A stretch of DNA of 64,000 nt from Candidatus Poseidoniales archaeon (GTDB lineage Archaea > Thermoplasmatota > Poseidoniia > Poseidoniales > Poseidoniaceae). Under the pieces are notes generated by a model. It searched no databases, had not been told where the DNA came from, and worked only from the letters and a program-made list of their open reading frames with translations. The DNA lies in assembly GCA_038105035.1 (NCBI GenBank), contig JAYOBT010000006.1:4704-68703 (forward strand), given 5' to 3'. Below, piece by piece: positions 44,637 to 57,483 of this stretch (position 1 is the first letter of the stretch; every line of letters begins with the position of its first letter). A program made the position numbers and the translations under genes.

Positions 44637-47600
44637 ATGCAATCTAACGTGCCTCATCGGAAACCCCTGAGCGTCCTGCTCATCCTTCTGATGATTGGCG
44701 TTGTACTTACACCATTGAGCGCACACGCTGCGGATTCGGATGGAGACGGTGTCGACAACTCTGTCGACGATTGCCCATATGCTAGCGGTACATCGACGGT
44801 CGATCGAGATGGGTGCCCCGATCGTGATGGCGATGGTACGTCCGACTTGATGGATGGTTGGACGAGTCAGAATCCAAATTTCGTTCTCAATGCAAACAAT
44901 CCACGTAGCTCTGATTTCAACGATGTTGATTTCTCTCCGAACGGCTCGGAAGTTGCAACTTCAAGTGATGACGGATACATCCGAATCTGGAACACCTCAA
45001 CTGGGCAAAACACGCGCTCCGTTATCGCTGTCTCAGGCGGAGGTACAGGAAAATTGTCGTGGTCTGCAGATGGTCGCTTCATCGGCGTCACTTCTCAGGC
45101 TGCAGATGAATTTGACATCTTTTATGCATCCAACCTGACATCCGTCCATGGTGCTTTGTCATCCGACGTTGGCGGAGGCGACTACACCTATGACATTGAT
45201 ATCTCTCCTGACGGTTCTAAGGCTGCTGTAGCCATTGGCCGGTCTGGAAACGGAGGCACAAACGGTGTTGTCCGAGTTGTGGATGTTATCAATGGCACCG
45301 TTATGCAGAATCTCAATCCAGGTGGCGAAGACCGATTCCATTCCGTTGATTTCTCACCAAGTGGCTCGCACATGGCCATCGGAACGGTTGGCGATTACTA
45401 CGTCGTTGATGCTTCGAGTTGGGCAACGACCCGAAGTGAAAGCGCTCCTGCAGGTACTGTCAACTCCATTGCATGGTCTCCAAGCGGAGAGCACATCGCC
45501 GTGTGTGAAGGCTACGTCAACAGCCAGGGCGGCTCCCGATTGCGTCTCTTTGAGGTCGATGTATGGACCAACATACAGACCATCGCAGGTTCAACCTCTT
45601 GTTATGCAACTGACTTCTCGCCGGATGGCAACCAAGTTGTCTTCGGTATGGGATGGTATGCAGCAGATGGTGCAACGGCGAAGATCTATGAGGTCTCGAG
45701 TGGAACGCTCATTGACACATTTTCACAGAGTCGTCCTGGAGGATGTACATCAACAAACAACAACCAGTGCGGGCAAAACAACGGCGTCTCGTGGTCGCCC
45801 GATGGAGTCTACATCGCCCAAGCATTTGGCCGAAACAACGAGGGATTCTACATTTGGAAGAGCGACCTCGACCCGGACAACGATGGTTGGAACACCACCG
45901 ATCAAGGCGACGGTAAGGTCGATGAATTCCCAGATGATGGCACACAGTGGGCAGATTCTGATGGAGATGGATACGGCGACAACCCTGCCCCTGCACTCAA
46001 CCCTGACGAATGCCCACTTGTCTTCGGAAACTCAACCATGGACCGATTTGGCTGTCCTGATGCTGATGGCGATGGTTACTCAGACGAAAACGACTGGGCG
46101 CCGAGCAACAAAGAGCAGTGGATTGATACAGATGGCGACGGCCATGGTGACAACTATCTCTACGACATAGCCTCCAATCAACTCCATCTCAACCAGCGAG
46201 GTGATGCATTCCCGAACGACGATACGCAATGGAACGACACTGACGGTGACGGTTACGGCGACAACTACGAAGATGTCTCTTGGAACGAATACCGTGCACC
46301 TGAGTGGCCTGGTGAAATCATTGTTGGCGCTCAGAGCATCGACGTTTTCCCACTCGATCGAACCCAGTGGAGGGATACCGACGGAGATTGGGTTGGCGAT
46401 GAGCAAATGAGCGATCGAGCGGATGGTTGTCCAACGGTTTGGGGCAACTCAACCTACGACCGACTCGGATGCATTGACACCGATGGCGACGGCTACTCCG
46501 ATCCAGATGCAGGATGGCCCACACGAACTGATTGTTACGGAGCAGACGCGTTCCCGAACGATCCGACGCAATGGTGCGACGAGGACAACGATGGTTTCGG
46601 AAGCAACCCTGACGGAAACAACGCAGACGATTGTCCAAATCAAGCCGGACCTTCCTCCGAAGACCAATATGGATGTCCTGACCGAGACGGGGATGGTTAC
46701 TCGAATACGGGCGATCCATTCCCAGACGATGGCACGCAATGGGAAGATTCGGACGGTGACAACTACGGTGACAATCCTGATGGAAACAATCCAGACTTCT
46801 TCCCCGACGATGCATCACAATGGCGAGATTCCGATGGCGATGGGTATGGCGACAATCCTGGTGGCACCAACGGAGATCGATTCCCGAACGACCCAACGCA
46901 ATGGTCCGATGCTGACAACGACGGTTACGGAGACAACTTTGTCGATACCGATGGCGATGGCATTTCAGAAGGAAACTCCGACGTTTGTCCACAGACCTAT
47001 GGCGAATCCAACTCGGCATCATCCCGTGGATGCCCAGATTCCGATGGTGACGGTTTCACCGATCCTGAAGACGCCTTCCCGGACCAACCGCTCCAGTGGG
47101 CCGACCAAGACGGTGATGGTTTTGGCGACAACGTCCAGTTCACCGATGGTGACGAGTGCATCGATGTCTACGGCAAGAGCACGGAGAACGGTGTTCAAGG
47201 CTGCCCTGATTCCGATGGTGATGGTCATGCCGATCCCTTCGGTGACTTCGTTCCCAAATCCGATTGTACAGGTGCAGACGCCTTCCCGGACGACCCACTT
47301 CAGTGGTGTGACAAAGACGGTGATGGTGTTGGTGACAATTATGTCTTTACGAACATCACCGTTCCTGACGAAGAGAATACTGGATTGATGATTGAGCTTT
47401 GCGAACAAATTGGCGATGCCTTCCCGAACGATGCCACGCAATGGGCTGACATGGATTGCGATGGCCGCGGTGACAACAGCACCGGTATCGCTCCAGACGC
47501 CTTCCCACTGCGTAAGACACAGCAAGACGACAACGATGGTGATGGATACGGAAACAACTTCACAAACGGTGCATATCAACCGGACGAATGCCGAAACGAG

Positions 47601-48113
47601 TTTGGAACATCAACCACGGATAGGTACGGTTGTCCAGACAGTGATAGCGACGGTATGTCCGACTTGAACGATCCGTGCAAGTGGGACCCTGCCGTTTCAG
47701 TAGGTATTCCCGGGCAAGTCACGTGTTCGATTACAGAAGATCCAAACAAAGCCGACGAGGAAGAGACGGTTGCTGAAGTCGAGGCAAAATCATCCAATGT
47801 GATGCTGTATGCGATGGGCGGTATCATTGCGTTCATGCTCGCAGCCATTCTTGTTGCTATGCTCGCTCGACAAGCAAGTCGCAACAAGATGATGCGAGAG
47901 CGAGCCATCGAGCGAAAGGCCGAGGAACAGTTCATGGATGAAGAAGAGCGCCGCCAACAATGGATCGACTACTACGTCGCTAACGGTGAATTCGACAAAG
48001 CACGTGAACTTGGTTGGGTTGATCCTGCATCGCTTCCAGCATGGAAACAGCATGAGATTCAGCAACAAGAAGCACTCCAAGCATCCATCCCATCCATGCT
48101 TGACCTGGATTGA
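44637..48113 (+). CDS. giant surface protein: signal peptide, 2 TSP3 repeats, 7-blade WD40-like propeller, ~20 TSP3-like Ca-binding repeats, TM, ~80-aa cytoplasmic tail
   Basis: Signal peptide LSVLLILLMIGVVLTPLSAHA. Blades include FSPNGSEVATSSDDGYIRIWN, WSADGRFIGV, ISPDGSKAAV, FSPSGSHMAIG, WSPSGEHIAV, FSPDGNQVVFG and WSPDGVYIAQ. Repeated D.DGDG(Y/F/H)(G/S)D(N/P) units follow. The TM is VMLYAMGGIIAFMLAAILVAML. Confidence 0.85.
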   Translation: MQSNVPHRKPLSVLLILLMIGVVLTPLSAHAADSDGDGVDNSVDDCPYASGTSTVDRDGCPDRDGDGTSDLMDGWTSQNPNFVLNANNPRSSDFNDVDFSPNGSEVATSSDDGYIRIWNTSTGQNTRSVIAVSGGGTGKLSWSADGRFIGVTSQAADEFDIFYASNLTSVHGALSSDVGGGDYTYDIDISPDGSKAAVAIGRSGNGGTNGVVRVVDVINGTVMQNLNPGGEDRFHSVDFSPSGSHMAIGTVGDYYVVDASSWATTRSESAPAGTVNSIAWSPSGEHIAVCEGYVNSQGGSRLRLFEVDVWTNIQTIAGSTSCYATDFSPDGNQVVFGMGWYAADGATAKIYEVSSGTLIDTFSQSRPGGCTSTNNNQCGQNNGVSWSPDGVYIAQAFGRNNEGFYIWKSDLDPDNDGWNTTDQGDGKVDEFPDDGTQWADSDGDGYGDNPAPALNPDECPLVFGNSTMDRFGCPDADGDGYSDENDWAPSNKEQWIDTDGDGHGDNYLYDIASNQLHLNQRGDAFPNDDTQWNDTDGDGYGDNYEDVSWNEYRAPEWPGEIIVGAQSIDVFPLDRTQWRDTDGDWVGDEQMSDRADGCPTVWGNSTYDRLGCIDTDGDGYSDPDAGWPTRTDCYGADAFPNDPTQWCDEDNDGFGSNPDGNNADDCPNQAGPSSEDQYGCPDRDGDGYSNTGDPFPDDGTQWEDSDGDNYGDNPDGNNPDFFPDDASQWRDSDGDGYGDNPGGTNGDRFPNDPTQWSDADNDGYGDNFVDTDGDGISEGNSDVCPQTYGESNSASSRGCPDSDGDGFTDPEDAFPDQPLQWADQDGDGFGDNVQFTDGDECIDVYGKSTENGVQGCPDSDGDGHADPFGDFVPKSDCTGADAFPDDPLQWCDKDGDGVGDNYVFTNITVPDEENTGLMIELCEQIGDAFPNDATQWADMDCDGRGDNSTGIAPDAFPLRKTQQDDNDGDGYGNNFTNGAYQPDECRNEFGTSTTDRYGCPDSDSDGMSDLNDPCKWDPAVSVGIPGQVTCSITEDPNKADEEETVAEVEAKSSNVMLYAMGGIIAFMLAAILVAMLARQASRNKMMRERAIERKAEEQFMDEEERRQQWIDYYVANGEFDKARELGWVDPASLPAWKQHEIQQQEALQASIPSMLDLD
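45864..47678 (+). repeat. coding array of ~20 degenerate thrombospondin type-3-like (DxDxDGxxDxxD) calcium-binding repeats
   Basis: Units seen include DSDGDGYGDN (twice), DTDGDGYGDN, DADGDGYSDE, DTDGDGHGDN, DRDGDGYSNT, DQDGDGFGDN and DKDGDGVGDN. Spacers are of the F-P-x-D-x-T-Q-W type. Confidence 0.85.
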
Positions 48114-48167: not shown

Positions 48168-50747
48168 ATGGGAGAGGGGCGTATGCGTCGTCTTGTTGCA
48201 ACATCCATGGTGATGTTGCTCGTTCTTCTCATCCCAGTAAGTGCTGAAGAAACTGCCACGGTTCGTCTCGAAATCGAGACATTGGATGAGAATTCCAAGC
48301 CTTGGTATGGCGCAGGAGATCGTGTTCTTTTCGCCTCTTCCATCGTCAACGAAGGTGCTGCAACCTCAATCACTGAAGACCCGTCATGTGGCGTCATCAT
48401 GCGTGTGGCCGATGCAGCGGGTACAACCATTCTTGACGAAGGCACAACATGTCGAGGACAAAGCCGTGGTCTTGACATCGGAGCAGGTACAACAGATCTG
48501 GACCAACATTCTTGGGATTTGACCGATCAAGATGGTGAACTGGTTTCTGCAGGACTCTATTCCATCAGCATCGAACTTGCAGGATCTGGACTTTCAGCAA
48601 CATCCGAAGTTATGGTTCAACAAAACGCTGGCATTCCACCAGAGTTGATCTTCTCAACCTCCATCGCACATCGAGAAGATGTGTTGTCCCTTGGTGAGCC
48701 ATTCGTCGTCGCTTACGAACTTCACAACCCAACGTCGGAAGCTATCGACATCAGTGGTCTTGATGCTTGTCAACTTCTGATTTCCTTTGAAGAGCAACAG
48801 CTCGGCCCATCATGCAATGCAGGCACAACGACCATCGATGCCTATGCTGTTCTCGGATTGGGCCACACCATGCACCAAGCGACATCAATCGACGCCCCCA
48901 CGCTAACGATTGAAACGCCTGATGCTCAAGTCATCGGTTCGTTCGAACTCTCTGTACAAGATGACGAAACCCTCTCAACTCCGCTTGATGCCTCGGTCAA
49001 CACACTCTCGACCTCCTTCCTCCAAGGCGAATTGTTTGGAGGTTCCCTTACGCTTGAAAACGATGGAAGCGAGAACGAACTGTTGCGCTTCACCAACACA
49101 TGTCGCGCCAGCTATTGGATTGCAGGTGGCGACGGTGTTGTGTTCGATTCTCTCGATCAAGCCAACTGTCGAGCGGCTGAGCTCGACGTGATCGTGGGTG
49201 CATCCTCGCAAACCACATTCCCTCTTCAGTCCTGGGCTTTTGTCGATGAAACCGGTTGTTCCATGTTGAGCGGTGACTACGTCCTCGTCGCTGAAATACC
49301 CGAATTCGGTTACGCTGCCTCAATGGATGTTGACTACCGTCGCATTCAGTCCACAGATTGTGGGACCGTATCCGAACCTCTCACATCTCTGTCCATCGAT
49401 CTTGATGACAACGATGAAGCATTGTTCGAATTGCAACTCGTTGGAATGGACGAGGAAACCGATATTCGCTGGCTGGAAATCTGCAAGGCATCGCTCCAAT
49501 TGTGGAACCTTGACCTCACTGAGAAGGTCATTGAAAAGAACGTCCTCTGCAACAGTGATGTTCAGGTCGACCAAGCCCTTCGAATCTCCTCAGAGGATGT
49601 TCTTCGATTCGAACTTGAAGAATTGAACACCTTCGAGTACCAAGACGCGGAATATCGAGTTCGAATCGATCTGGCAACGGACCAAGATATGATGCTCGAG
49701 TATGAATTCTCGTGGCCGTTGAACGTCGATGTTGAAGAAGCGGTGATTGTTGAAGAAGACGTCGCAGCAGACGCTCCAATCGTTCTCGTCGATGGTGTTT
49801 GGAGTGGCGTCTTGACACCAGACGGAACCTGCTGGATGCTTGAAAACGATGCAGGCGTCATTCACATGCTCGCAGATGCGACCATGGCTTCTTGGGCACC
49901 AGAGCGTGGATTGACGGGCACCTACCAAGCCCAACAAACAGATGCAAACCAGGCTTGTACACGATTCACCGCTGACAGTTTCACATTTGTCGGAATTGTA
50001 CAGGAAATTCCATTGATTGAAGAATCGCCCGCTGTCGAAGAATCATCCATCGTCGAGAACGAAGTTGTCGAGCAAGAAGCGCTCCCCGCCTGGGCACCAC
50101 AAGCGGTGACTGTACTCACAGTAAGCGCGATTCTCTCCATGCTTGGCTTTGCTGCTTTCAACAACGAAGCGATTCGTATCTCGACCACTCTCACAGGATT
50201 GTGGTTCCTCGGTCTGATCGGTAAAACCTCAGAGACAAGCGATGGGCGATTCCAACGCGGACGACTGCTTGGTTACCTTACAGCAAACCCTGGTTGTCAC
50301 TTCCGTGCTCTCTTGTCTGCTTTGGACATGAGCAACGGACAACTCTCTCATCACCTTCGAGTTCTCGAACAAGAAGAAAGCATCTGGCGACGTAAGGACG
50401 GTCGCTTGGTACGCTACTACCCATTGACCAACACGCTCCATCCATTGCTTGAGGATGATGCACTACCAGTGCCAATTCTCGCTCCTGATCCTCTTTCGCT
50501 TCAAGGCAAAATTCTGGTTTTGCTCGATCATGACAGTCAAATGGGAGACTTCCCTACCCAAGCTGAACTCGCAAAGCGACTCGACAAATCCCAACAACTC
50601 ATCTCCCACCATCTCCGTACCTTGGAGAAATACGGCCTCATCGAAGGACGACGTATGGGCATGCGCAACCGCTACAAACTCACCAAGGAAGCAATGTTCC
50701 TTTTGGAGACCAGCGAAGCATACGTACAGAACGAGATGAACCTCTGA
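48168..50747 (+). CDS. membrane-anchored transcription regulator: ~630-aa extracytoplasmic Cys-paired Ig-like repeats, 2 TM, two C-terminal ArsR-type winged-helix domains
   Basis: Signal/TM MRRLVATSMVMLLVLLIPVSA. TMs are AVTVLTVSAILSMLGFAAF and LTGLWFLGLIG. wHTH 1 is GRLLGYLTANPGCHFRALLSALDMSNGQLSHHLRVLEQEESIWRRKDGRLVRYYPL. wHTH 2 is QGKILVLLDH...FPTQAELAKRLDKSQQLISHHLRTLEKYGLIEGRRMGMRNRYKLT. Confidence 0.75.
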   Translation: MGEGRMRRLVATSMVMLLVLLIPVSAEETATVRLEIETLDENSKPWYGAGDRVLFASSIVNEGAATSITEDPSCGVIMRVADAAGTTILDEGTTCRGQSRGLDIGAGTTDLDQHSWDLTDQDGELVSAGLYSISIELAGSGLSATSEVMVQQNAGIPPELIFSTSIAHREDVLSLGEPFVVAYELHNPTSEAIDISGLDACQLLISFEEQQLGPSCNAGTTTIDAYAVLGLGHTMHQATSIDAPTLTIETPDAQVIGSFELSVQDDETLSTPLDASVNTLSTSFLQGELFGGSLTLENDGSENELLRFTNTCRASYWIAGGDGVVFDSLDQANCRAAELDVIVGASSQTTFPLQSWAFVDETGCSMLSGDYVLVAEIPEFGYAASMDVDYRRIQSTDCGTVSEPLTSLSIDLDDNDEALFELQLVGMDEETDIRWLEICKASLQLWNLDLTEKVIEKNVLCNSDVQVDQALRISSEDVLRFELEELNTFEYQDAEYRVRIDLATDQDMMLEYEFSWPLNVDVEEAVIVEEDVAADAPIVLVDGVWSGVLTPDGTCWMLENDAGVIHMLADATMASWAPERGLTGTYQAQQTDANQACTRFTADSFTFVGIVQEIPLIEESPAVEESSIVENEVVEQEALPAWAPQAVTVLTVSAILSMLGFAAFNNEAIRISTTLTGLWFLGLIGKTSETSDGRFQRGRLLGYLTANPGCHFRALLSALDMSNGQLSHHLRVLEQEESIWRRKDGRLVRYYPLTNTLHPLLEDDALPVPILAPDPLSLQGKILVLLDHDSQMGDFPTQAELAKRLDKSQQLISHHLRTLEKYGLIEGRRMGMRNRYKLTKEAMFLLETSEAYVQNEMNL

Positions 50748-50826
50748 ATTCGATTCGCTGAGGTGGATTGAAGAAGGATAGCATGGAGGCGTGTTTAGCG
50801 TAGGATGTGTCGACGTGTCGGATGAG

Positions 50827-53640
50827 ATGAAGACGACGGATGAAGTTGCATGGCAACAAGCATGGACCGATGCTAACGTCTTCGGTTCAAGTGATGATGC
50901 ATCCAAACCGAAATTCTACTGTTTGGAAATGTATCCGTATCCTTCCGGAAAAATGCACATGGGACACGTTCGAAACTATTCGATTGGCGATGCTGTTGCC
51001 CGTTACAAGCGGATGAAAGGTTTCAACGTCCTTTACCCAATGGGATTTGATTCGTTTGGAATGCCTGCAGAAAATGCTGCCATAGCTGAAGGTGGGCATC
51101 CTCATGACATCACCGAGAAGAACATGGCCTCCATTACGGAACAGATCAAGCGCATGGGATTCTCGTACGACTGGAGTCGATTGGTCAAGAGTCACGATCC
51201 GAATTATTACAAGTGGAACCAATTGTTCTTCACCCGCTTTTTCAATTCAGGACTCGCCTATCGTGAGTTTGCTCCAGTCAATTGGTGCGAATCCTGTTCA
51301 ACGGTCCTTGCCAACGAACAAGTCAAAGCGGGCCGATGCTGGCGATGCAACGGTCCTGTACGACAAAAGGACATGAGCCAATGGTTCATTGACATCACCA
51401 AGTACGCTCAACAATTGCTCGATGGACTCGATACCATCGAGTTTCCAGAAAGTGTTCGGTTGATGCAAGAGGACTGGCTTGGCCGTTCCGAAGGAGCAGA
51501 AATCGAATTCGGTATTGAAGGGAGTGAGGAAACCATCCGCGTTTTCACAACCCGGCCTGACACCCTGTTTGGCGTCACCTTCGTCACGCTCGCACCGGAA
51601 CACCCCCTTGCAGAACAACTGGTCAAAGGGACCGAGTATGAGGCGGGCTGGCAAGCCATGCACGATGTGTATGCCAACATGAGCGAGTTCGATCGAATCA
51701 AGAATCTCAACAAGAAGGAAGGTGTTTCTCTCGGGCGCTTTGCTATCCACCCGCTTACTGGTGAGAAAATTCCAATCTGGGCAGGTAACTTTGTTCTCGC
51801 TACCTACGGAACGGGAGCTGTCATGGCTGTTCCTGGTCATGATGAACGCGATTTTGACTTTGCCAAAACATACGATTTGCCAATCAAGCGTGTGCTCATC
51901 GAAAACGAGAACGATGATGCTGATGAAGAACTTGAATCAGCCTATACGGAAGATGGATACATGGTTCATTCAGGAATGGATGGATTCGATGGCCGCTTCG
52001 GAGATGCTGCGCGTACGGCTGTTATCGATGCCCTCGAAACCGCTGGAAAGGGCGATCGTCGAGTCAATTGGAAGATTCGCCCTTGGCTCATCAGTCGCCA
52101 GCGTTACTGGGGCACACCGATTCCAATCATCCACTGTGAGGACTGTGGAGCCGTTCCTGTTCCTGAAGATCAACTGCCAGTTGAACTTCCACGCGACGTT
52201 GTCTTCGATGGGAAAGGAAATCCATTGGAAACATCAGAATCATTCCTTAACGTAGATTGCCCCAAGTGCGGTAAGCCTGCACGAAGAGAAACCGATACGA
52301 TGGATACGTTTGTTGATTCATCGTGGTACTTCTTGCGCTATACCGATGCCAACAACCTCGAACAATGGTACGATGCAGACATCGCTGATTATTGGATGAA
52401 CGTTGATTTCTATTGTGGGGGAATCGAACATGCACAAATGCACCTGATTTACGCCCGTTTCTACACCAAGGCGCTTCGCGATCTTGGCTTCCATAGTATT
52501 GATGAACCATTCAACGAATTGCTCTGTCAAGGCATGGTCAACAAGAGCGCCCCTTTCTGTGAAACCTGTTCCGTGACCCTCTCGGTCGATCATGCTGGCT
52601 CACCATGTCCGCATTGCAATTCACCACTCGGTGAACGCTCTGCAAAAATGAGCAAATCGCTCGGTAACACGGTTTCTCCTGAACAGATGATCGAACAATT
52701 CGGGGCCGATACGGTTCGCTTGTTCATTCTCTTTGCTGCAAATCCGACCGCTGGAATGGACTGGTCCGATTCCGCTGTTGAAGCCAATCATCGAGTGATG
52801 CAACAACTGCAAACGATGCCTGACCAACTCCTTGGATGGAACAAGCCTGCCCATTCCATCGATGATTGGATGATGGCTCGACTCCGACAACGCCTCCAAC
52901 AATGGTCCGATGCGATGGACCGATACGACTTGCGTCGAGCTGTCGAATGCTCCCACTATGACATGGTCAAAGACATCAACTGGTACGTACGTCGCGGAGG
53001 AGGCAATGCTGAAATCGGCCGAACATTGCTTCACTCATGGACCCACATGATCGGCATCGCCACACCGCATCTTGCAGAAGATTGGTGGGCGCAACTTGGT
53101 GGAGAGGGACTCCTCGCTACGCATGTCATGGACGACATTCAGGCCGTCAGCGAAGAAGATCAGGCCGTCCTCGATGGAGAAGCATTGATTCGAGATCTCC
53201 TCGAACAAGCACGAAAAGTTCGCAGTGTTGCTGAGCGACACATCGATGGGGAAGCAACATCGCTCACCATCGTCACCTCCGCACCATGGAGAAACACCAT
53301 GGCAGAAATGGCATTAACACATCTTTCCGAAGGAAACAACGTCAAGACCTTCATGGGCATTTTGACCCAATCCGAACTCGCTCAAGGTGAAACACGGGGT
53401 GAACGACTCGGATTCTGGAACAAGCGCATGCTACCTCAAGTGTTCAAGTGGGACGATGAAAAGAAGCGAATTCTTCTTTCAACACTTGATGAAACACAGG
53501 TCTATGCTAATGCTTCCAACTTCATCGCAGAAGAACTCGGTCTTGCATCGGTACGCATCGTCCGTGGTGAAGGCGAAGAGGATGAAACAGGGAAAGCAGG
53601 CGTTGCGATGCCACTTTCACCCGCATTCATCTATGCTTGA
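50827..53640 (+). CDS. leuS: leucyl-tRNA synthetase
   Basis: The first in-frame ATG is at 50827; the track start at 50791 is GTG. Contains [15 protein letters not shown] (HIGH), TRPDT, [19 protein letters not shown] (CP1 editing) and KMSKS. Confidence 0.9.
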   Translation: [937 protein letters not shown]

Positions 53641-56336
53641 GTCTCTTCTCCGACCGGTTCCGAAGAAGCCTCAGGCGCAGTTGCTGGTTCGGTTTCAAGT
53701 GTTGGAACCGCTTTCTGTTGTGGTTGATTCGTCGGTGCCTTGACTGGTTTGAACGTGAAATAGCCAGCAACACAAGCAAGAGCGAGTGCAACCAAGATCA
53801 GAATTTGATTGATTCCAAAGGAAGAATCAGAACTTTCACTCTTGTTCTCAACAATGATCAAAGTACAACCATCCGAATCGACCTGTTCGCCAAGAGGTGT
53901 TGAAGGGCATAGGTCATCATCGTTCAGGATTCCATCGGAATCAGAATCAGCTTGTTCGGAGGAACATCCCGCACCATTGACAACAGTACTCAATGGTGTC
54001 CTTGGACAGATATCGGCATCGTTGAGAACTCCGTCTGCATCGTCGTCCACGTCTTCTTCACCATCGACACATCCGTCCGCATCGAAGTCTTGGGAAGGCA
54101 ACACTGGTCCAACAAGACCACGCGGGCACAGGTCGAAGATGTCTTCGAAACCATCGCCATCGTCATCGTCGTCTTCTTCGTCATCATGGCAACCATCCTG
54201 ATCACGATCGAGTGATGTATCGGTCGCATTCCAATCTCGGAACCCCTTTGGACACATATCGAGCTGGTTCGATCCAATCATATCGAGCATCATATCGTTG
54301 TCATCATCAAGGTCGTTGATGCTGTCTTGACAACCATCACGATCCCAGTCGTTCATTTCTGTTGAATCCCACAAAGCGAGATCACGTGGACAACCGTCCT
54401 CGATGTTGACGATTCCATCCCCATCCTCATCCAAGTCGCAAGCATCGCCAATGGAGTCACCATCAAGGTCTTCCTGTCCAGCGTTTGAAGTGCTTGGACA
54501 GTTGTCACGTTGATCAACAAAACCATCTTCATCCGTATCGAAGTCTGAACATCCATCTCCCTCAACGTCGGTTTCCAGAGTTGAGACCCATCCGATTGGA
54601 CCCTTCGGACACGAGTCAAGGTGGTCGTAGACTGTGTCGTTGTCATCATCAAAATCCTCGTCTGCATCACGGCATCCATCGCTGTCGTGATCGGTTGAAC
54701 CGCTGCTTGTCCAGCCAACTTCGCCTTGTTGACAGACGTCAAGATCGTCAGCAATCCCATCGTTATCGTCGTCATCATCGCAGACATCACCAAACACATC
54801 CGATTCGAAGTTCGCTTGGTCTGAATTGGACACTCTTGGACAATTGTCGATACCATCGAGCACACCGTCACCATCAAGATCGGTCTCATAGTGCCAGACA
54901 CCACCATCTTGTCCACCTACTGAAACCACAGAATGGTTACCGTACATACCTGAATCTTCGAATGAGAAGGCGATAAGAGAACCACCTGAAGAAGAGGAAA
55001 CCATGTCGTAAACACGGTCCCGGCCATCGCTTCCACCAGTGAGCGCCCACAACCAACCATCATTGAAATCGTATTCACCGAGGAAAATGTCGGTTCCAAA
55101 GTACCCCGTATCATCGTCGTAGTCAACCAAGGTTTCGCCACCGAGGGTGAACGTATACGTTGTCACACCAGCATAGATGACCGAACCAGATGCTGTTCGA
55201 TATGCTGCACTGTACATATCGTAACCCGAACCACCCTCAACAATGAGTCCGTCCCAGGCCCCATTGGTGGTGATGTCGGCTCGGAAAGCATCGAACCATT
55301 GTGTGGTCTCACTGTAATCCGTCCCGAACGTCGAATTGCCCTCAATGGTTCCGTAGACTTGCACATCCAATCCAGCCCCTGCAACGCAGCCGTTGACCAG
55401 GTCGTCGCCTGTGCCACCCGCTTGTTGCAACCAAATCCAACTGGCCGCATCGTATTTGGCGACAACGATGTCACCGCCACCGTTTGAATCAATAGAACCA
55501 ACCTCATCGAATGCGAGTTGTCCAATGAACGTGAAGGCGATGAACGTATCACCAACGCTGTTCTGACAGAAGCCACCAAAGGGCTCAACACCGTCTTCTG
55601 ACATGGCAGTAAATCCGTTGGTGAAGGTTCCGTATTCATCGAAAAGCATCACTGCAAGACTGGATTGGGAGCCACCAGCAAAAATGGTCTGATTCATATC
55701 AAGAAGTTCCTTGAACAATACACTCACATGGATTCGATCGTATTCATCAACAAACATATCGAACATCAAAATCTCTTGTTGGTTAGAGATGGAAACAGCC
55801 CATTGCCAACCAGTTTCAACGTCGTATCGAGCGATGTAGGCATTGCCCTCGTCAGAATCTGAATCCTTGTCCAATGTTGGAAGAGACCCCAAGGTCATGT
55901 TGCATTGAAGGCCTGCACTGCCAAGGCAATAATTGCCTGCAATGATGAAATCACCATCGCTCATCAAAGCAAGAGCATCCACGGAATCGACTCCGATGCT
56001 ACCGAACGATTCACTGAAATTCCAATCGTTGGTCTCGTTCGAGATGGCAATGAAACCATCCATGTCATCGAATCCAAGCTGGTTGGAATCGTGTCCGTTA
56101 TCGCCAATCAAGATTGAAGAAGTGAAACTACCGCCAACGAGAACGGAGTTGTTGGATAGAGGTGCAAGTGCATTGATGGAATCTTCTCCAAAGCCACCAA
56201 CTGTGACTGCCCATCCCAACGGTTCCGACTCCTCACCGTTGAATTGTGGAGAAATTTCAGCATCGAGAACCTCTGCTTGAGGGTGAGGCATTGTTGCGAG
56301 AAGGAGTGCAAAAACGATGAACAATGGACGAAGCAT
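53631..56336 (-). CDS. giant surface protein: signal peptide, SBBP-like beta-propeller region, ~10 Cys-containing TSP3-like repeats, C-terminal TM
   Basis: Start set at the ATG at 56336 (MLRPLFIVFALLLATMPHPQA). The N-terminal half has repeated ..GG.G.D......D.....G.F.. propeller-like units. Next come DLDGDGVLDGIDNCP, DHDSDGCRDADEDFDDDND, DLDEDGDGIVNIEDGCP and DSDSDGILNDDDLCP. The TM is ILILVALALACVAGYFTF. Confidence 0.8.
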   Translation of the reverse strand: MLRPLFIVFALLLATMPHPQAEVLDAEISPQFNGEESEPLGWAVTVGGFGEDSINALAPLSNNSVLVGGSFTSSILIGDNGHDSNQLGFDDMDGFIAISNETNDWNFSESFGSIGVDSVDALALMSDGDFIIAGNYCLGSAGLQCNMTLGSLPTLDKDSDSDEGNAYIARYDVETGWQWAVSISNQQEILMFDMFVDEYDRIHVSVLFKELLDMNQTIFAGGSQSSLAVMLFDEYGTFTNGFTAMSEDGVEPFGGFCQNSVGDTFIAFTFIGQLAFDEVGSIDSNGGGDIVVAKYDAASWIWLQQAGGTGDDLVNGCVAGAGLDVQVYGTIEGNSTFGTDYSETTQWFDAFRADITTNGAWDGLIVEGGSGYDMYSAAYRTASGSVIYAGVTTYTFTLGGETLVDYDDDTGYFGTDIFLGEYDFNDGWLWALTGGSDGRDRVYDMVSSSSGGSLIAFSFEDSGMYGNHSVVSVGGQDGGVWHYETDLDGDGVLDGIDNCPRVSNSDQANFESDVFGDVCDDDDDNDGIADDLDVCQQGEVGWTSSGSTDHDSDGCRDADEDFDDDNDTVYDHLDSCPKGPIGWVSTLETDVEGDGCSDFDTDEDGFVDQRDNCPSTSNAGQEDLDGDSIGDACDLDEDGDGIVNIEDGCPRDLALWDSTEMNDWDRDGCQDSINDLDDDNDMMLDMIGSNQLDMCPKGFRDWNATDTSLDRDQDGCHDDEEDDDDDGDGFEDIFDLCPRGLVGPVLPSQDFDADGCVDGEEDVDDDADGVLNDADICPRTPLSTVVNGAGCSSEQADSDSDGILNDDDLCPSTPLGEQVDSDGCTLIIVENKSESSDSSFGINQILILVALALACVAGYFTFKPVKAPTNQPQQKAVPTLETEPATAPEASSEPVGEETQA

Positions 56337-56436
56337 AGTCTTGTGATGAACTGCCACTTCATGAAGGTGTTGCGTTACAGTCCATTCACTTGTTTGTGAC
56401 GATTGGTTCAAAGACGGTCGACGTCGAGGTCCAACC

Positions 56437-57483
56437 ATGTCCCAAGGTCGTAAGCCAAAACGCAGCGGTCAGGGGCGGCAACGAAACCGTCGTCGCTACG
56501 GCGGCCCGCGCAAAGCCAATCTGATTGAACAATCGAAGAAAGAACTTCTCGAATACAATCAACGAGCCAACAACCGATTCGATTATGAGAAAACAGGTAT
56601 CCAGCCGGTCGGATTACCAGATGATTCATCAAACGCGAAATCCTTCTCATTTACGTGGAAATGCAACCCAGTCCGCCTCACGGATGAAGAGAAAATGGCC
56701 GATTTTGTCGTTCGCAAGGGTGAATTCGGTTGGCTCGATGATGACCGTGTCGATGAGATCGCGAACTTTGCTGAACCTCTTTCTATCTCAGCAGACCAGG
56801 CCCTGTCCCTTCGCTCAGCTCTTCTCCAGCAGAAGACCGTCTATGGCCACTCAACCATGCGGAATCGTGGTCGTCAAATCCACCGTGATTACAAGCAAGG
56901 AATGTCGGTGGTCGATTTGTCCAAGAAATACGACTTCCCCCCGATGAACATCTTTCGACAAATCCTCGCCGAGAAAGGATGGTCGAAGACGAAAATCAAG
57001 GAAGCCGTTCGGGCACCATCTCGTTTTTCAGAACGTGAACGAAAAGAATTCGAAGCTGCAGAGGAAGCTGATCGAGTCTCAAACGTTGACCAAAGCGAGA
57101 CCCACCTTCGGGCCGATGTGTTTGAGAACATTCTTGCCGATTGGTTTGAAGAGCAAGGTGTGCGACTTCGCCGTCAACCTGAACTTGTCAAAGAACAATC
57201 GATTGAGATCGGCGGTCCAAAACTAACGCCAGATATTCTGTTCCTCGACCATGTTGAGATCAATGGCCAACCGGTTGCATGGATTGATGCAAAACACTTC
57301 TACGGGGCTGATGTTGGGTTCCAACGCAAGAAGATGTCCAAACAAATGATGCGTTACATCAACGAATGGGGAAGTGGAGCCATCGTTTTCAGGCATGGAT
57401 TCTCAGAAAATCTGTACATGGCTGGCGTGACCATGTTGGACGCCAGTCCTTTGGACCTCTCTGAATTGCAAGACCGACCTTAG
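56437..57483 (+). CDS. TPD-motif PD-(D/E)XK nuclease-fold protein (CDIN1/C15orf41-like) with a basic N-terminal tail and HTH-like middle region
   Basis: The C-terminal region is ...ADVFENILADWFEEQGV...KLTPDILFLDHVEINGQPVAWIDAKHFYG: a helix E, then PD, then D-A-K. The middle region is YKQGMSVVDLSKKYDFPPMNIFRQIL. The N-terminus is MSQGRKPKRSGQGRQRNRRRYGGPRK. Confidence 0.6.
   Translation: MSQGRKPKRSGQGRQRNRRRYGGPRKANLIEQSKKELLEYNQRANNRFDYEKTGIQPVGLPDDSSNAKSFSFTWKCNPVRLTDEEKMADFVVRKGEFGWLDDDRVDEIANFAEPLSISADQALSLRSALLQQKTVYGHSTMRNRGRQIHRDYKQGMSVVDLSKKYDFPPMNIFRQILAEKGWSKTKIKEAVRAPSRFSERERKEFEAAEEADRVSNVDQSETHLRADVFENILADWFEEQGVRLRRQPELVKEQSIEIGGPKLTPDILFLDHVEINGQPVAWIDAKHFYGADVGFQRKKMSKQMMRYINEWGSGAIVFRHGFSENLYMAGVTMLDASPLDLSELQDRP

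Follow-up and report, generated by a model that had tools for sequence, protein, structure and literature searches.

The gene leuS, encoding leucyl-tRNA synthetase (LeuRS), in a 64,000-nucleotide stretch of a Candidatus Poseidoniales genome (assembly GCA_038105035.1, contig JAYOBT010000006.1, positions 4,704 to 68,703 of the forward strand; hereafter the window) has two sources: a bacterial-type catalytic and editing body is joined, at a domain boundary, to an archaeal-type rear part that is native to the lineage. The junction is one and the same in the Poseidoniales enzymes that we compared, and the locus is shared with an unrecombined, archaeal-type orthologue in a sister lineage. The best explanation, and in our judgement a probable one, is that the 5' two-thirds of the native leuS were replaced in situ by those of a bacterial-type leuS.

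The window has a GC content of about 50%; the proteins encoded in it are acidic, with an abundance of Ca-binding repeats, and its LeuRS is 68–95% identical to proteins of Candidatus Poseidoniales and Poseidonia (Marine Group II). In what follows, f1 denotes the window's own Poseidoniales family (11 genera), f2 the second Poseidoniales family, and f35, f18, f42, f49 and f5 other families of Thermoplasmatota; P0130 and P0296 are the LeuRS of the sister lineage. The gene most probably starts at the ATG at 50827, an in-frame GTG upstream, at 50791, being less likely because of the N-termini of homologues. The window's own genome (draft assembly, 79 contigs, 86% complete) yielded no second LeuRS; its other matches to the archaeal LeuRS model were IleRS, ValRS, MetRS and CysRS. 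The gene and its parts are as follows, all on the plus strand.

50827..53640 (stop codon included), plus strand: leuS, ATG start, encoding a LeuRS of 937 aa
50827..52791, plus strand: bacterial-type (LeuRS-B) part, residues 1 to ~655, by profile, tree and identity
Residues 44-47, plus strand: HIGH motif, here HMGH
C154...C174, plus strand: ZN1, inside the bacterial-type part
51472..52035, plus strand: CP1 editing domain, residues 216-403 (PF13603, E 4.8e-62)
C437...C481, plus strand: ZN2, inside the bacterial-type part
52558..52617, plus strand: four-cysteine (Cys4) element CETC-x12-CPHC, residues 578-597, at the site of the leucine-specific domain
52645..52659, plus strand: KMSKS, residues 607-611
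52792..52809, plus strand: junction from bacterial-type to native archaeal-type sequence, residues 656-661, by cumulative identity difference and sliding windows
52810..53166, plus strand: alpha-helix bundle, archaeal-type, residues ~662-780, by tree and identity
53167..53637, plus strand: C-terminal tRNA-binding domain (CTD), archaeal-type, residues 781-937, by HMMER alignment to 1wz2 residues 811-964, tree and fold
53605-53637, plus strand: LeuRS tail, the last 11 residues

A bacterial-type body and a native archaeal-type rear part

The bacterial profile TIGR00396 (leuS_bact) matched the protein with 901.7 bits (cut-off 548.4), aligning residues 7-789 to profile positions 8-794 of 843. The archaeal profile TIGR00395 (leuS_arch) scored 279.3 bits over the whole protein, below its cut-off of 648.5, with a good match only over residues 606-935. 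Identity of the front part was 46–56% to bacterial LeuRS as against 23–27% to the archaeal type, and in a tree of residues 6-655 the Poseidoniales were monophyletic within the bacterial-type clade (support 100/100). Residues 6-573 are collinear with, and 42–56% identical to, the bacterial enzymes of Thermus thermophilus (1h3n, 656 bits) and Escherichia coli (4aq7 and 3zgz), with the same succession of ZN1, CP1 and ZN2; CP1 sits after ZN1, which is the bacterial arrangement, and alignments to 1h3n and 3zgz showed TTRPDT and GHDERD to be kept. Because these editing motifs are intact, as are HMGH and KMSKS, the enzyme is expected to be active and editing-competent. It differs from bacterial LeuRS in lacking their C-terminal VQVNG domain, in having a non-bacterial helix bundle and in carrying the Cys4 mini-domain where they have the leucine-specific domain.

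The rear part has other relatives. With residues 604-937 alone, the best match was the LeuRS of Pyrococcus horikoshii (1wz2; phmmer, E 1.4e-27, residues 606-934 against 649-964 of 1wz2), compared with E 6e-16 for the best bacterial LeuRS, whose alignment ended near residue 780; bacterial LeuRS alignments stopped at about residue 760-780, with low scores. The VQVNG block of bacterial C-termini was not found in the window LeuRS, and the reported absence of VQVNGKVR is thereby borne out. An AlphaFold2 model of residues 650-937 had a predicted local distance difference test score (pLDDT) of 93.6, and its top Foldseek match was 1wz2_A (E 4.6e-11, TMq 0.72), with human cytoplasmic LeuRS next; bacterial enzymes came in at E >=0.036 and TMq <=0.38. 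We discarded a full-length AlphaFold2 model built with 20 Poseidoniales sequences, which had a mean pLDDT of 66 and a poor front part; its Foldseek matches were bacterial LeuRS at a TM of about 0.3. The P. horikoshii enzyme (1wz2/1wkb) is thus alike in its bundle and CTD, by sequence and by fold, and in the terminal AMPLxPA, but differs in its N-terminal two-thirds (the 23–27% identity given above) and in the placement of CP1.

Phylogenetic analysis ties this rear part to archaeal-type LeuRS of the same phylum, and to the sister lineage in particular. The helix bundle was 41–55% identical to that of P0130 compared with 10–26% to those of bacterial and other hybrid LeuRS. In a tree of the bundle (residues 661-780), the Poseidoniales grouped with P0130 (100/99) and were nested in the archaeal-type LeuRS of Thermoplasmatota (97/92), a clade split at 98/94 from f35, the DPANN-like hybrids P0175/P0211, Haladaptatus LeuRS-B and the bacteria. 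The CTD (781-937) gave the same Poseidoniales plus P0130 clade (100/99), with the other hybrids clustering apart, and a tree of residues 661-937 to which P0296 and named LeuRS-B had been added joined the Poseidoniales to P0130/P0296 with a support of 100, this clade lying within the archaeal type of Thermoplasmatota at 97. Approximately unbiased (AU) tests on residues 661-937 rejected a grouping of the Poseidoniales with f35 and the DPANN-like hybrids (p 3e-5), with all bacterial-type sequences (p 0.003) and with all LeuRS-B, one haloarchaeal sequence included (p 5e-5). Residues ~660-937 are the lineage's own archaeal-type module. The sister order Marine Group III (MGIII) was considered as a source of the rear part and rejected: its archaeal-type LeuRS is 22–26% identical to the rear part and its locus is non-syntenic.

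The initial annotation had proposed such a chimera, of a bacterial core and an archaeal C-terminal third, by comparison with reference motifs. Front and rear do have different nearest neighbours and incompatible trees, as separate analysis of the two halves, which it had suggested, made clear: the N-terminal part (N-part) is bacterial-type at 100/100 and residues 661-937 belong to the Thermoplasmatota archaeal type. All the motifs that it quoted are in the 937-aa translation; those given for E. coli were found in 3zgz_A, and 1wz2 has DRWMLHRL, DLRWYLRR, TPHICEELWEKLGGEGF and AMPLKPAI at the aligned positions.

We located the junction in an alignment of 48 sequences comprising Poseidoniales of both families, f35, DPANN-like hybrids, Haladaptatus LeuRS-B, bacteria and archaeal-type LeuRS from Thermoplasmatota, MGIII and others. 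Up to about residue 640-660 the query was 40–73% identical to bacterial-type sequences; past about residue 660 this identity dropped to 10–26%, and that to archaeal-type P0130 climbed to 33–55%. In each of the 11 Poseidoniales sequences, which come from both families, the cumulative difference in affinity was largest at residues 656-661, a position known to about ±10 residues. This is a domain boundary, the class-I catalytic profile PF01406 ending at residue 653 and the anticodon-binding profile PF08264 starting at 679. The change of affinity had originally been placed at nt ~52790-52860, a range that does contain 52792-52809, and at residue ~680, a number that has to be moved to 656-661. In f35, the DPANN-like hybrids and haloarchaeal LeuRS-B, the bundle stands at roughly equal distances from bacteria and archaea, and the switch is spread out and comes later, at positions corresponding to residues 678-750 of the window LeuRS, which is consistent with Fang et al. 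(2014). Haloarchaeal, DPANN and Asgard-type hybrids, the comparison that the initial annotation had called for, do not share the Poseidoniales junction. The leuS of Nonomuraea was left out of the trees: its longest open reading frame was a wrong-strand artefact of a high-GC locus, with a branch length of 8.75.

Could the chimera be an artefact of mis-assembly, mis-binning or compositional attraction? The draft state of the window's genome speaks for caution. The same architecture and junction nevertheless recur in all Poseidoniales genomes that were sampled, and hundreds of independent protein clusters show them too; P0130/P0296 group with the C-terminal part (C-part) despite a GC content of 69% as against about 50% in the window. 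This recurrence across assemblies excludes an artefact, to which we give practically no weight. A leuS_bact match above the cut-off was found in each of 64 sampled Poseidoniales genomes, and an archaeal-type N-part in none of 401.

The leuS locus in a third Poseidoniales lineage

P0130 is a complete archaeal-type LeuRS of 1024 aa (TIGR00395, 673 bits) that is 40–48% identical, end to end, to the LeuRS of many Thermoplasmatota families, and its last 330 residues are 35–41% identical to the rear part of the Poseidoniales enzymes. The contig on which it lies (SRR12463106, 55 kb, 69% GC) is collinear with the window over ~20 kb. P0296, which is 73% identical to P0130, has the same neighbours on a 3.0-Mb contig (ERZ26167216) from another project. 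The window, the f2 loci and the P0130/P0296 contigs share the order WD40, helix-turn-helix (HTH), leuS, TPD, GHMP, RpoD, S11, S4 and S13, and a 424-aa protein closes the collinear block in the window and in the P0130 contig. This gene order was not found around leuS in MGIII, f18, f42, f49, f5 or f35. The neighbours of leuS in the window are:

44637-48113, plus strand: WD40/Ca-repeat protein, upstream neighbour, collinear with the P0130/P0296 contigs and the f2 loci
48168-50747, plus strand: 859-aa protein with C-terminal HTH domains, upstream neighbour, collinear with the P0130/P0296 contigs and the f2 loci
56437-57483, plus strand: TPD-motif protein, downstream, by tblastn collinearity
After the TPD gene and up to 62300, minus strand: GHMP kinase, RpoD, S11, S4, S13 and the 424-aa homologue, by tblastn collinearity

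The phylogenetic position of these contigs was examined with a tree of S13, S4, S11 and RpoD, which placed them within the Poseidoniales (100/100), where they make up a third deep branch beside f1 and f2. Their lineage is deep, has a GC content of 69% and a genome of ~3 Mb, and is matched by none of the 401 sampled genomes of the order.

The two upstream genes are both kept beside leuS across the clade. The WD40 protein, of 1158 aa, consists of a beta-propeller and many DxDxDG-type Ca-binding repeats with a C-terminal membrane anchor, and the 859-aa protein has an N-terminus that looks like a signal and, at its C-terminus, two winged-helix domains, one of HVO_0163 type and one of ArsR/MarR type. 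A gene on the minus strand (53631-56438) separates leuS from the TPD gene; its product, of 935 aa, contains thrombospondin type-3 repeats, and the gene converges on leuS, with an overlap of 10 nt at the leuS end. The f2 loci and the P0130/P0296 contigs lack it there, which makes it a lineage-specific insertion into the syntenic block.

Related hybrids and the source of the front part

A LeuRS with a bacterial body and an archaeal tail is of a kind already known. Most haloarchaea have a bacterial-like LeuRS-B that takes a basal position among Bacteria, for which GARD placed the breakpoint at 628 or at 780 according to the alignment used (Andam et al., 2012; PMC3436685). In Natrialba magadii, NmLeuRS1/2 are natural chimeras that are bacterial-type from Met1 to Pro756, helix bundle included, and continue with an archaeal CTD; they charge archaeal but not E. 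coli tRNA-Leu, cannot do without the CTD and its last residues or without A47c/G47d in the tRNA, and show no activity when fitted with a bacterial CTD (Fang et al., 2014; PMC4005665). The Poseidoniales enzyme resembles them in joining a bacterial-type Rossmann fold and CP1 to an archaeal-type CTD in one polypeptide, in an archaeal host with type-II, A73 tRNA-Leu, and it too is presumably the working LeuRS of the cell. The switch, however, comes after the bundle (Pro756) in NmLeuRS1 and before it (656-661) in Poseidoniales.

We found LeuRS-B with an archaeal tail to be much more widespread than in haloarchaea. A cluster of 904-aa hybrids includes a Woesearchaeota protein, and a form of 925-932 aa occurs in ANME-2/Methanosarcinales, Nanoarchaeia, several Asgard groups and the Thermoplasmatota family f35. 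The latter form shares with the Poseidoniales enzyme a bacterial-type N-part, the same CxxC...CxxC insert, a similar length and an archaeal-style tail; its bundle and CTD, in contrast, form a clade of their own (100) outside archaeal-type LeuRS. In f35 (genomes G077, G083, G146 and G174, of 3.1-4.4 Mb), the archaeal-type LeuRS has been wholly replaced by the Cys4-type LeuRS-B, which lies at a different, non-syntenic locus; no archaeal-type copy was found there. This is a separate event within the same phylum.

Given so wide a distribution, together with the shared insert and a loose grouping of the Poseidoniales N-part with LeuRS-B (83/89), the chimera might have been acquired whole from haloarchaea or other archaea (Woesearchaeota, ANME-2, Nanoarchaeia, Asgard groups or the Thermoplasmatota family), with no recombination specific to Poseidoniales. 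The rear part makes this very improbable: residues 661-937 group with P0130/P0296 in the Thermoplasmatota archaeal type, a grouping with LeuRS-B being rejected by the AU test; the bundle is far less similar to those of LeuRS-B than to that of P0130, in the proportions given above; and the gene occupies the locus at which the sister lineage has an archaeal-type gene. The rear of haloarchaeal LeuRS-B is, by the same AU test, unrelated to that of Poseidoniales, which is kin to the archaeal LeuRS of its own lineage, and, unlike in the haloarchaeal case, a sister lineage still has the unrecombined orthologue at this locus. What is new here is the junction before the bundle, in 11 of 11 sequences, a rear part unrelated to those of other hybrids and sister to P0130/P0296, and an archaeal gene at the same syntenic position. 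Our literature search found no paper linking Marine Group II or Poseidoniales with LeuRS.

The insert bears on the source of the front part. Residues ~574-604 (52546-52638) fill the site of the leucine-specific domain directly before KMSKS and contain the Cys4 element, which has 12 residues between its halves and lies exactly at the coordinates first assigned to it, nt 52558-52617, in place of the bacterial insertion. It is conserved, being present in all 120 Poseidoniales matches and in 114 of 120 matches to archaeal LeuRS-B; those bearing it came from ANME-2, Nanoarchaeia, Asgard groups and f35, and it is a hallmark of a large archaeal family of bacterial-type LeuRS. We did not find it in 10 bacterial LeuRS, in the Woesearchaeota-type hybrids P0175/P0211 or in the LeuRS-B of Haladaptatus, which differs in this from the Poseidoniales enzyme. 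When 14 named archaeal LeuRS-B were added to the N-part tree and the Cys4 columns removed, all archaeal LeuRS-B, Poseidoniales included, formed one group (the 83/89 cited above). Since the insert is shared with archaeal LeuRS-B and absent from the 10 bacterial sequences, the donor was probably an archaeon with the Cys4 variant, and the front part may come from another archaeon's bacterial-type LeuRS, not directly from a bacterium.

We propose the following history. The ancestor of f1 and f2 would have taken in a leuS of the bacterial type, whose most likely source is another archaeon bearing the Cys4 variant, and a single recombination at the native locus would have exchanged codons 1 to ~655 of the resident archaeal leuS, the crossover falling exactly at the boundary of the catalytic domain and the helix bundle. 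The third deep lineage, that of P0130/P0296, still carries a wholly archaeal gene at this syntenic position, one that would have escaped the recombination. By analogy with the experiments on the Natrialba and Pyrococcus enzymes, the bacterial-type body would activate leucine, transfer it and edit mischarged tRNA, and the native rear would hold tRNA-Leu by its long variable arm. Such a role would account for the rear not being exchangeable.

Several observations weigh against parts of this history. With regard to its polarity, f1, f2 and P0130/P0296 form a trichotomy, in which a clade of f1 and f2 is merely not rejected (p-AU 0.30-0.35), so that an ancestral state kept in the outgroup is the simplest reading rather than a demonstrated one; the sister lineage is, moreover, known from two contigs. 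The hybrid could then be ancestral, P0130/P0296 having later taken an archaeal-type front from other Thermoplasmatota. In the ribosomal protein tree with P0130 as the only member of its lineage, P0130 was weakly sister to f1 (86/72), and under a topology of P0130 plus f1 one origin and one reversal cost the same as two gains. Such a reversal would, however, need a second recombination at the boundary already used by the first, and P0130 is congruent throughout, its N-part grouping at 97-98 with Thermoplasmatota LeuRS-A and its C-part being of the Thermoplasmatota type as well; with the monophyly of f1 and f2 not rejected, we regard the reverse polarity as quite unlikely.

With regard to the donor, the Poseidoniales were sister to the Cys4-bearing clade at only 59/62 in the N-part tree enlarged by the named LeuRS-B, and the N-part tree with 10 bacterial sequences did not settle the deep branching order. 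A sister relationship of the N-part to f35, which had a support of 93 in a quick tree, was dropped when that support vanished with more bacteria and a careful search. Sampling was thin: a single LeuRS-B, encoded on a plasmid and sitting on a long branch, represented the haloarchaea, and 10-11 sequences the bacteria. The identity of the N-part to the LeuRS of Brevibacillus (56%) equals that to archaeal LeuRS-B. A front part taken directly from a bacterium would fit this lack of clear order among the deep branches and the identities to Brevibacillus, Monoglobus (54%) and T. thermophilus (52%), which match the 52–56% to archaeal LeuRS-B. It is nonetheless unlikely in view of the distribution of the Cys4 insert (114 of 120 archaeal LeuRS-B matches as against none of 10 bacterial LeuRS) and of the single group that archaeal LeuRS-B and Poseidoniales still form with the insert columns removed.

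Variable arm of tRNA-Leu and the LeuRS tail

Four tRNA-Leu genes were found in the window's own genome, with A73, an encoded CCA and long variable arms:

Contig C15, 10984-11070: tRNA-Leu gene
Contig C41, 14920-15006: tRNA-Leu gene
Contig C51, 1799-1883: tRNA-Leu gene
Contig C54, 2432-2518: tRNA-Leu gene

The tip of the variable loop reads UAG or CAG in f2, MGIII, f18, f42, f35 and f5. Across the 11 genera of f1 it reads UAA, UAU, CAA or UAC in 29 of 29 further loci and in most tRNA-Leu of two genomes; that is, the G of the A47c-G47d 'AG' tip has been lost in f1. This G was described as absolutely conserved in archaea and essential by Fang et al. (2014; PMC4005665), who list Asp845, Ile849, Pro962, Ile964, Ile966 and Glu967 as the residues with which the P. 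horikoshii enzyme reads A47c/G47d. According to the HMMER alignment and a comparison of tails, Pro962 is kept in the window LeuRS, which has Phe for Ile964, Tyr for Ile966, Ala for Glu967, Gln for Asp845 and Val for Ile849; the changes at 966, 967 and 845 are points of difference from P. horikoshii LeuRS.

The tail varies by lineage. Ordinary (canonical) Thermoplasmatota enzymes end in PL(K/R)PAI(Y/F)xE, a derived tail PLEPG(I/F)A(F/Y)x is common to the f2 enzymes and P0130/P0296, and f1 has PL(S/A)P(A/S)(F/I)(I/V)Y(A/N). Tyr or Phe here takes the place of the tail Ile that the Natrialba and Pyrococcus enzymes cannot do without. The loss of the tip G in f1 and the altered f1 tail, both read from sequences, suggest that the rear module and the tRNA kept co-evolving after the chimera had formed.

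Aminoacyl-tRNA synthetases are standard cases of inter-domain gene transfer, limited by compatibility with the tRNA of the recipient. Against this background we lean towards a general view in which archaea have joined a bacterial-type body to an archaeal rear at least twice independently, at different boundaries. In Poseidoniales this would have happened by homologous or illegitimate recombination in the resident gene, the state before the event surviving in a sister lineage, and the bundle and CTD would form a unit locked to tRNA-Leu, drifting with the tRNA in f1.

If the proposed history is true, a foreign catalytic and editing body has reached fixation in one of the ocean's most abundant archaeal groups, but only in fusion with the tRNA-binding module already resident there, and the unfused ancestral gene is available for comparison at the same locus. 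This would amount to a natural domain-swap experiment, would suggest that the helix bundle and CTD are a unit locked to the tRNA-Leu of their lineage, and would turn the chimera into a dated marker in Poseidoniales evolution. The junction at residues 656-661 defines constructs with which to ask which modules of LeuRS carry the specificity for tRNA-Leu.

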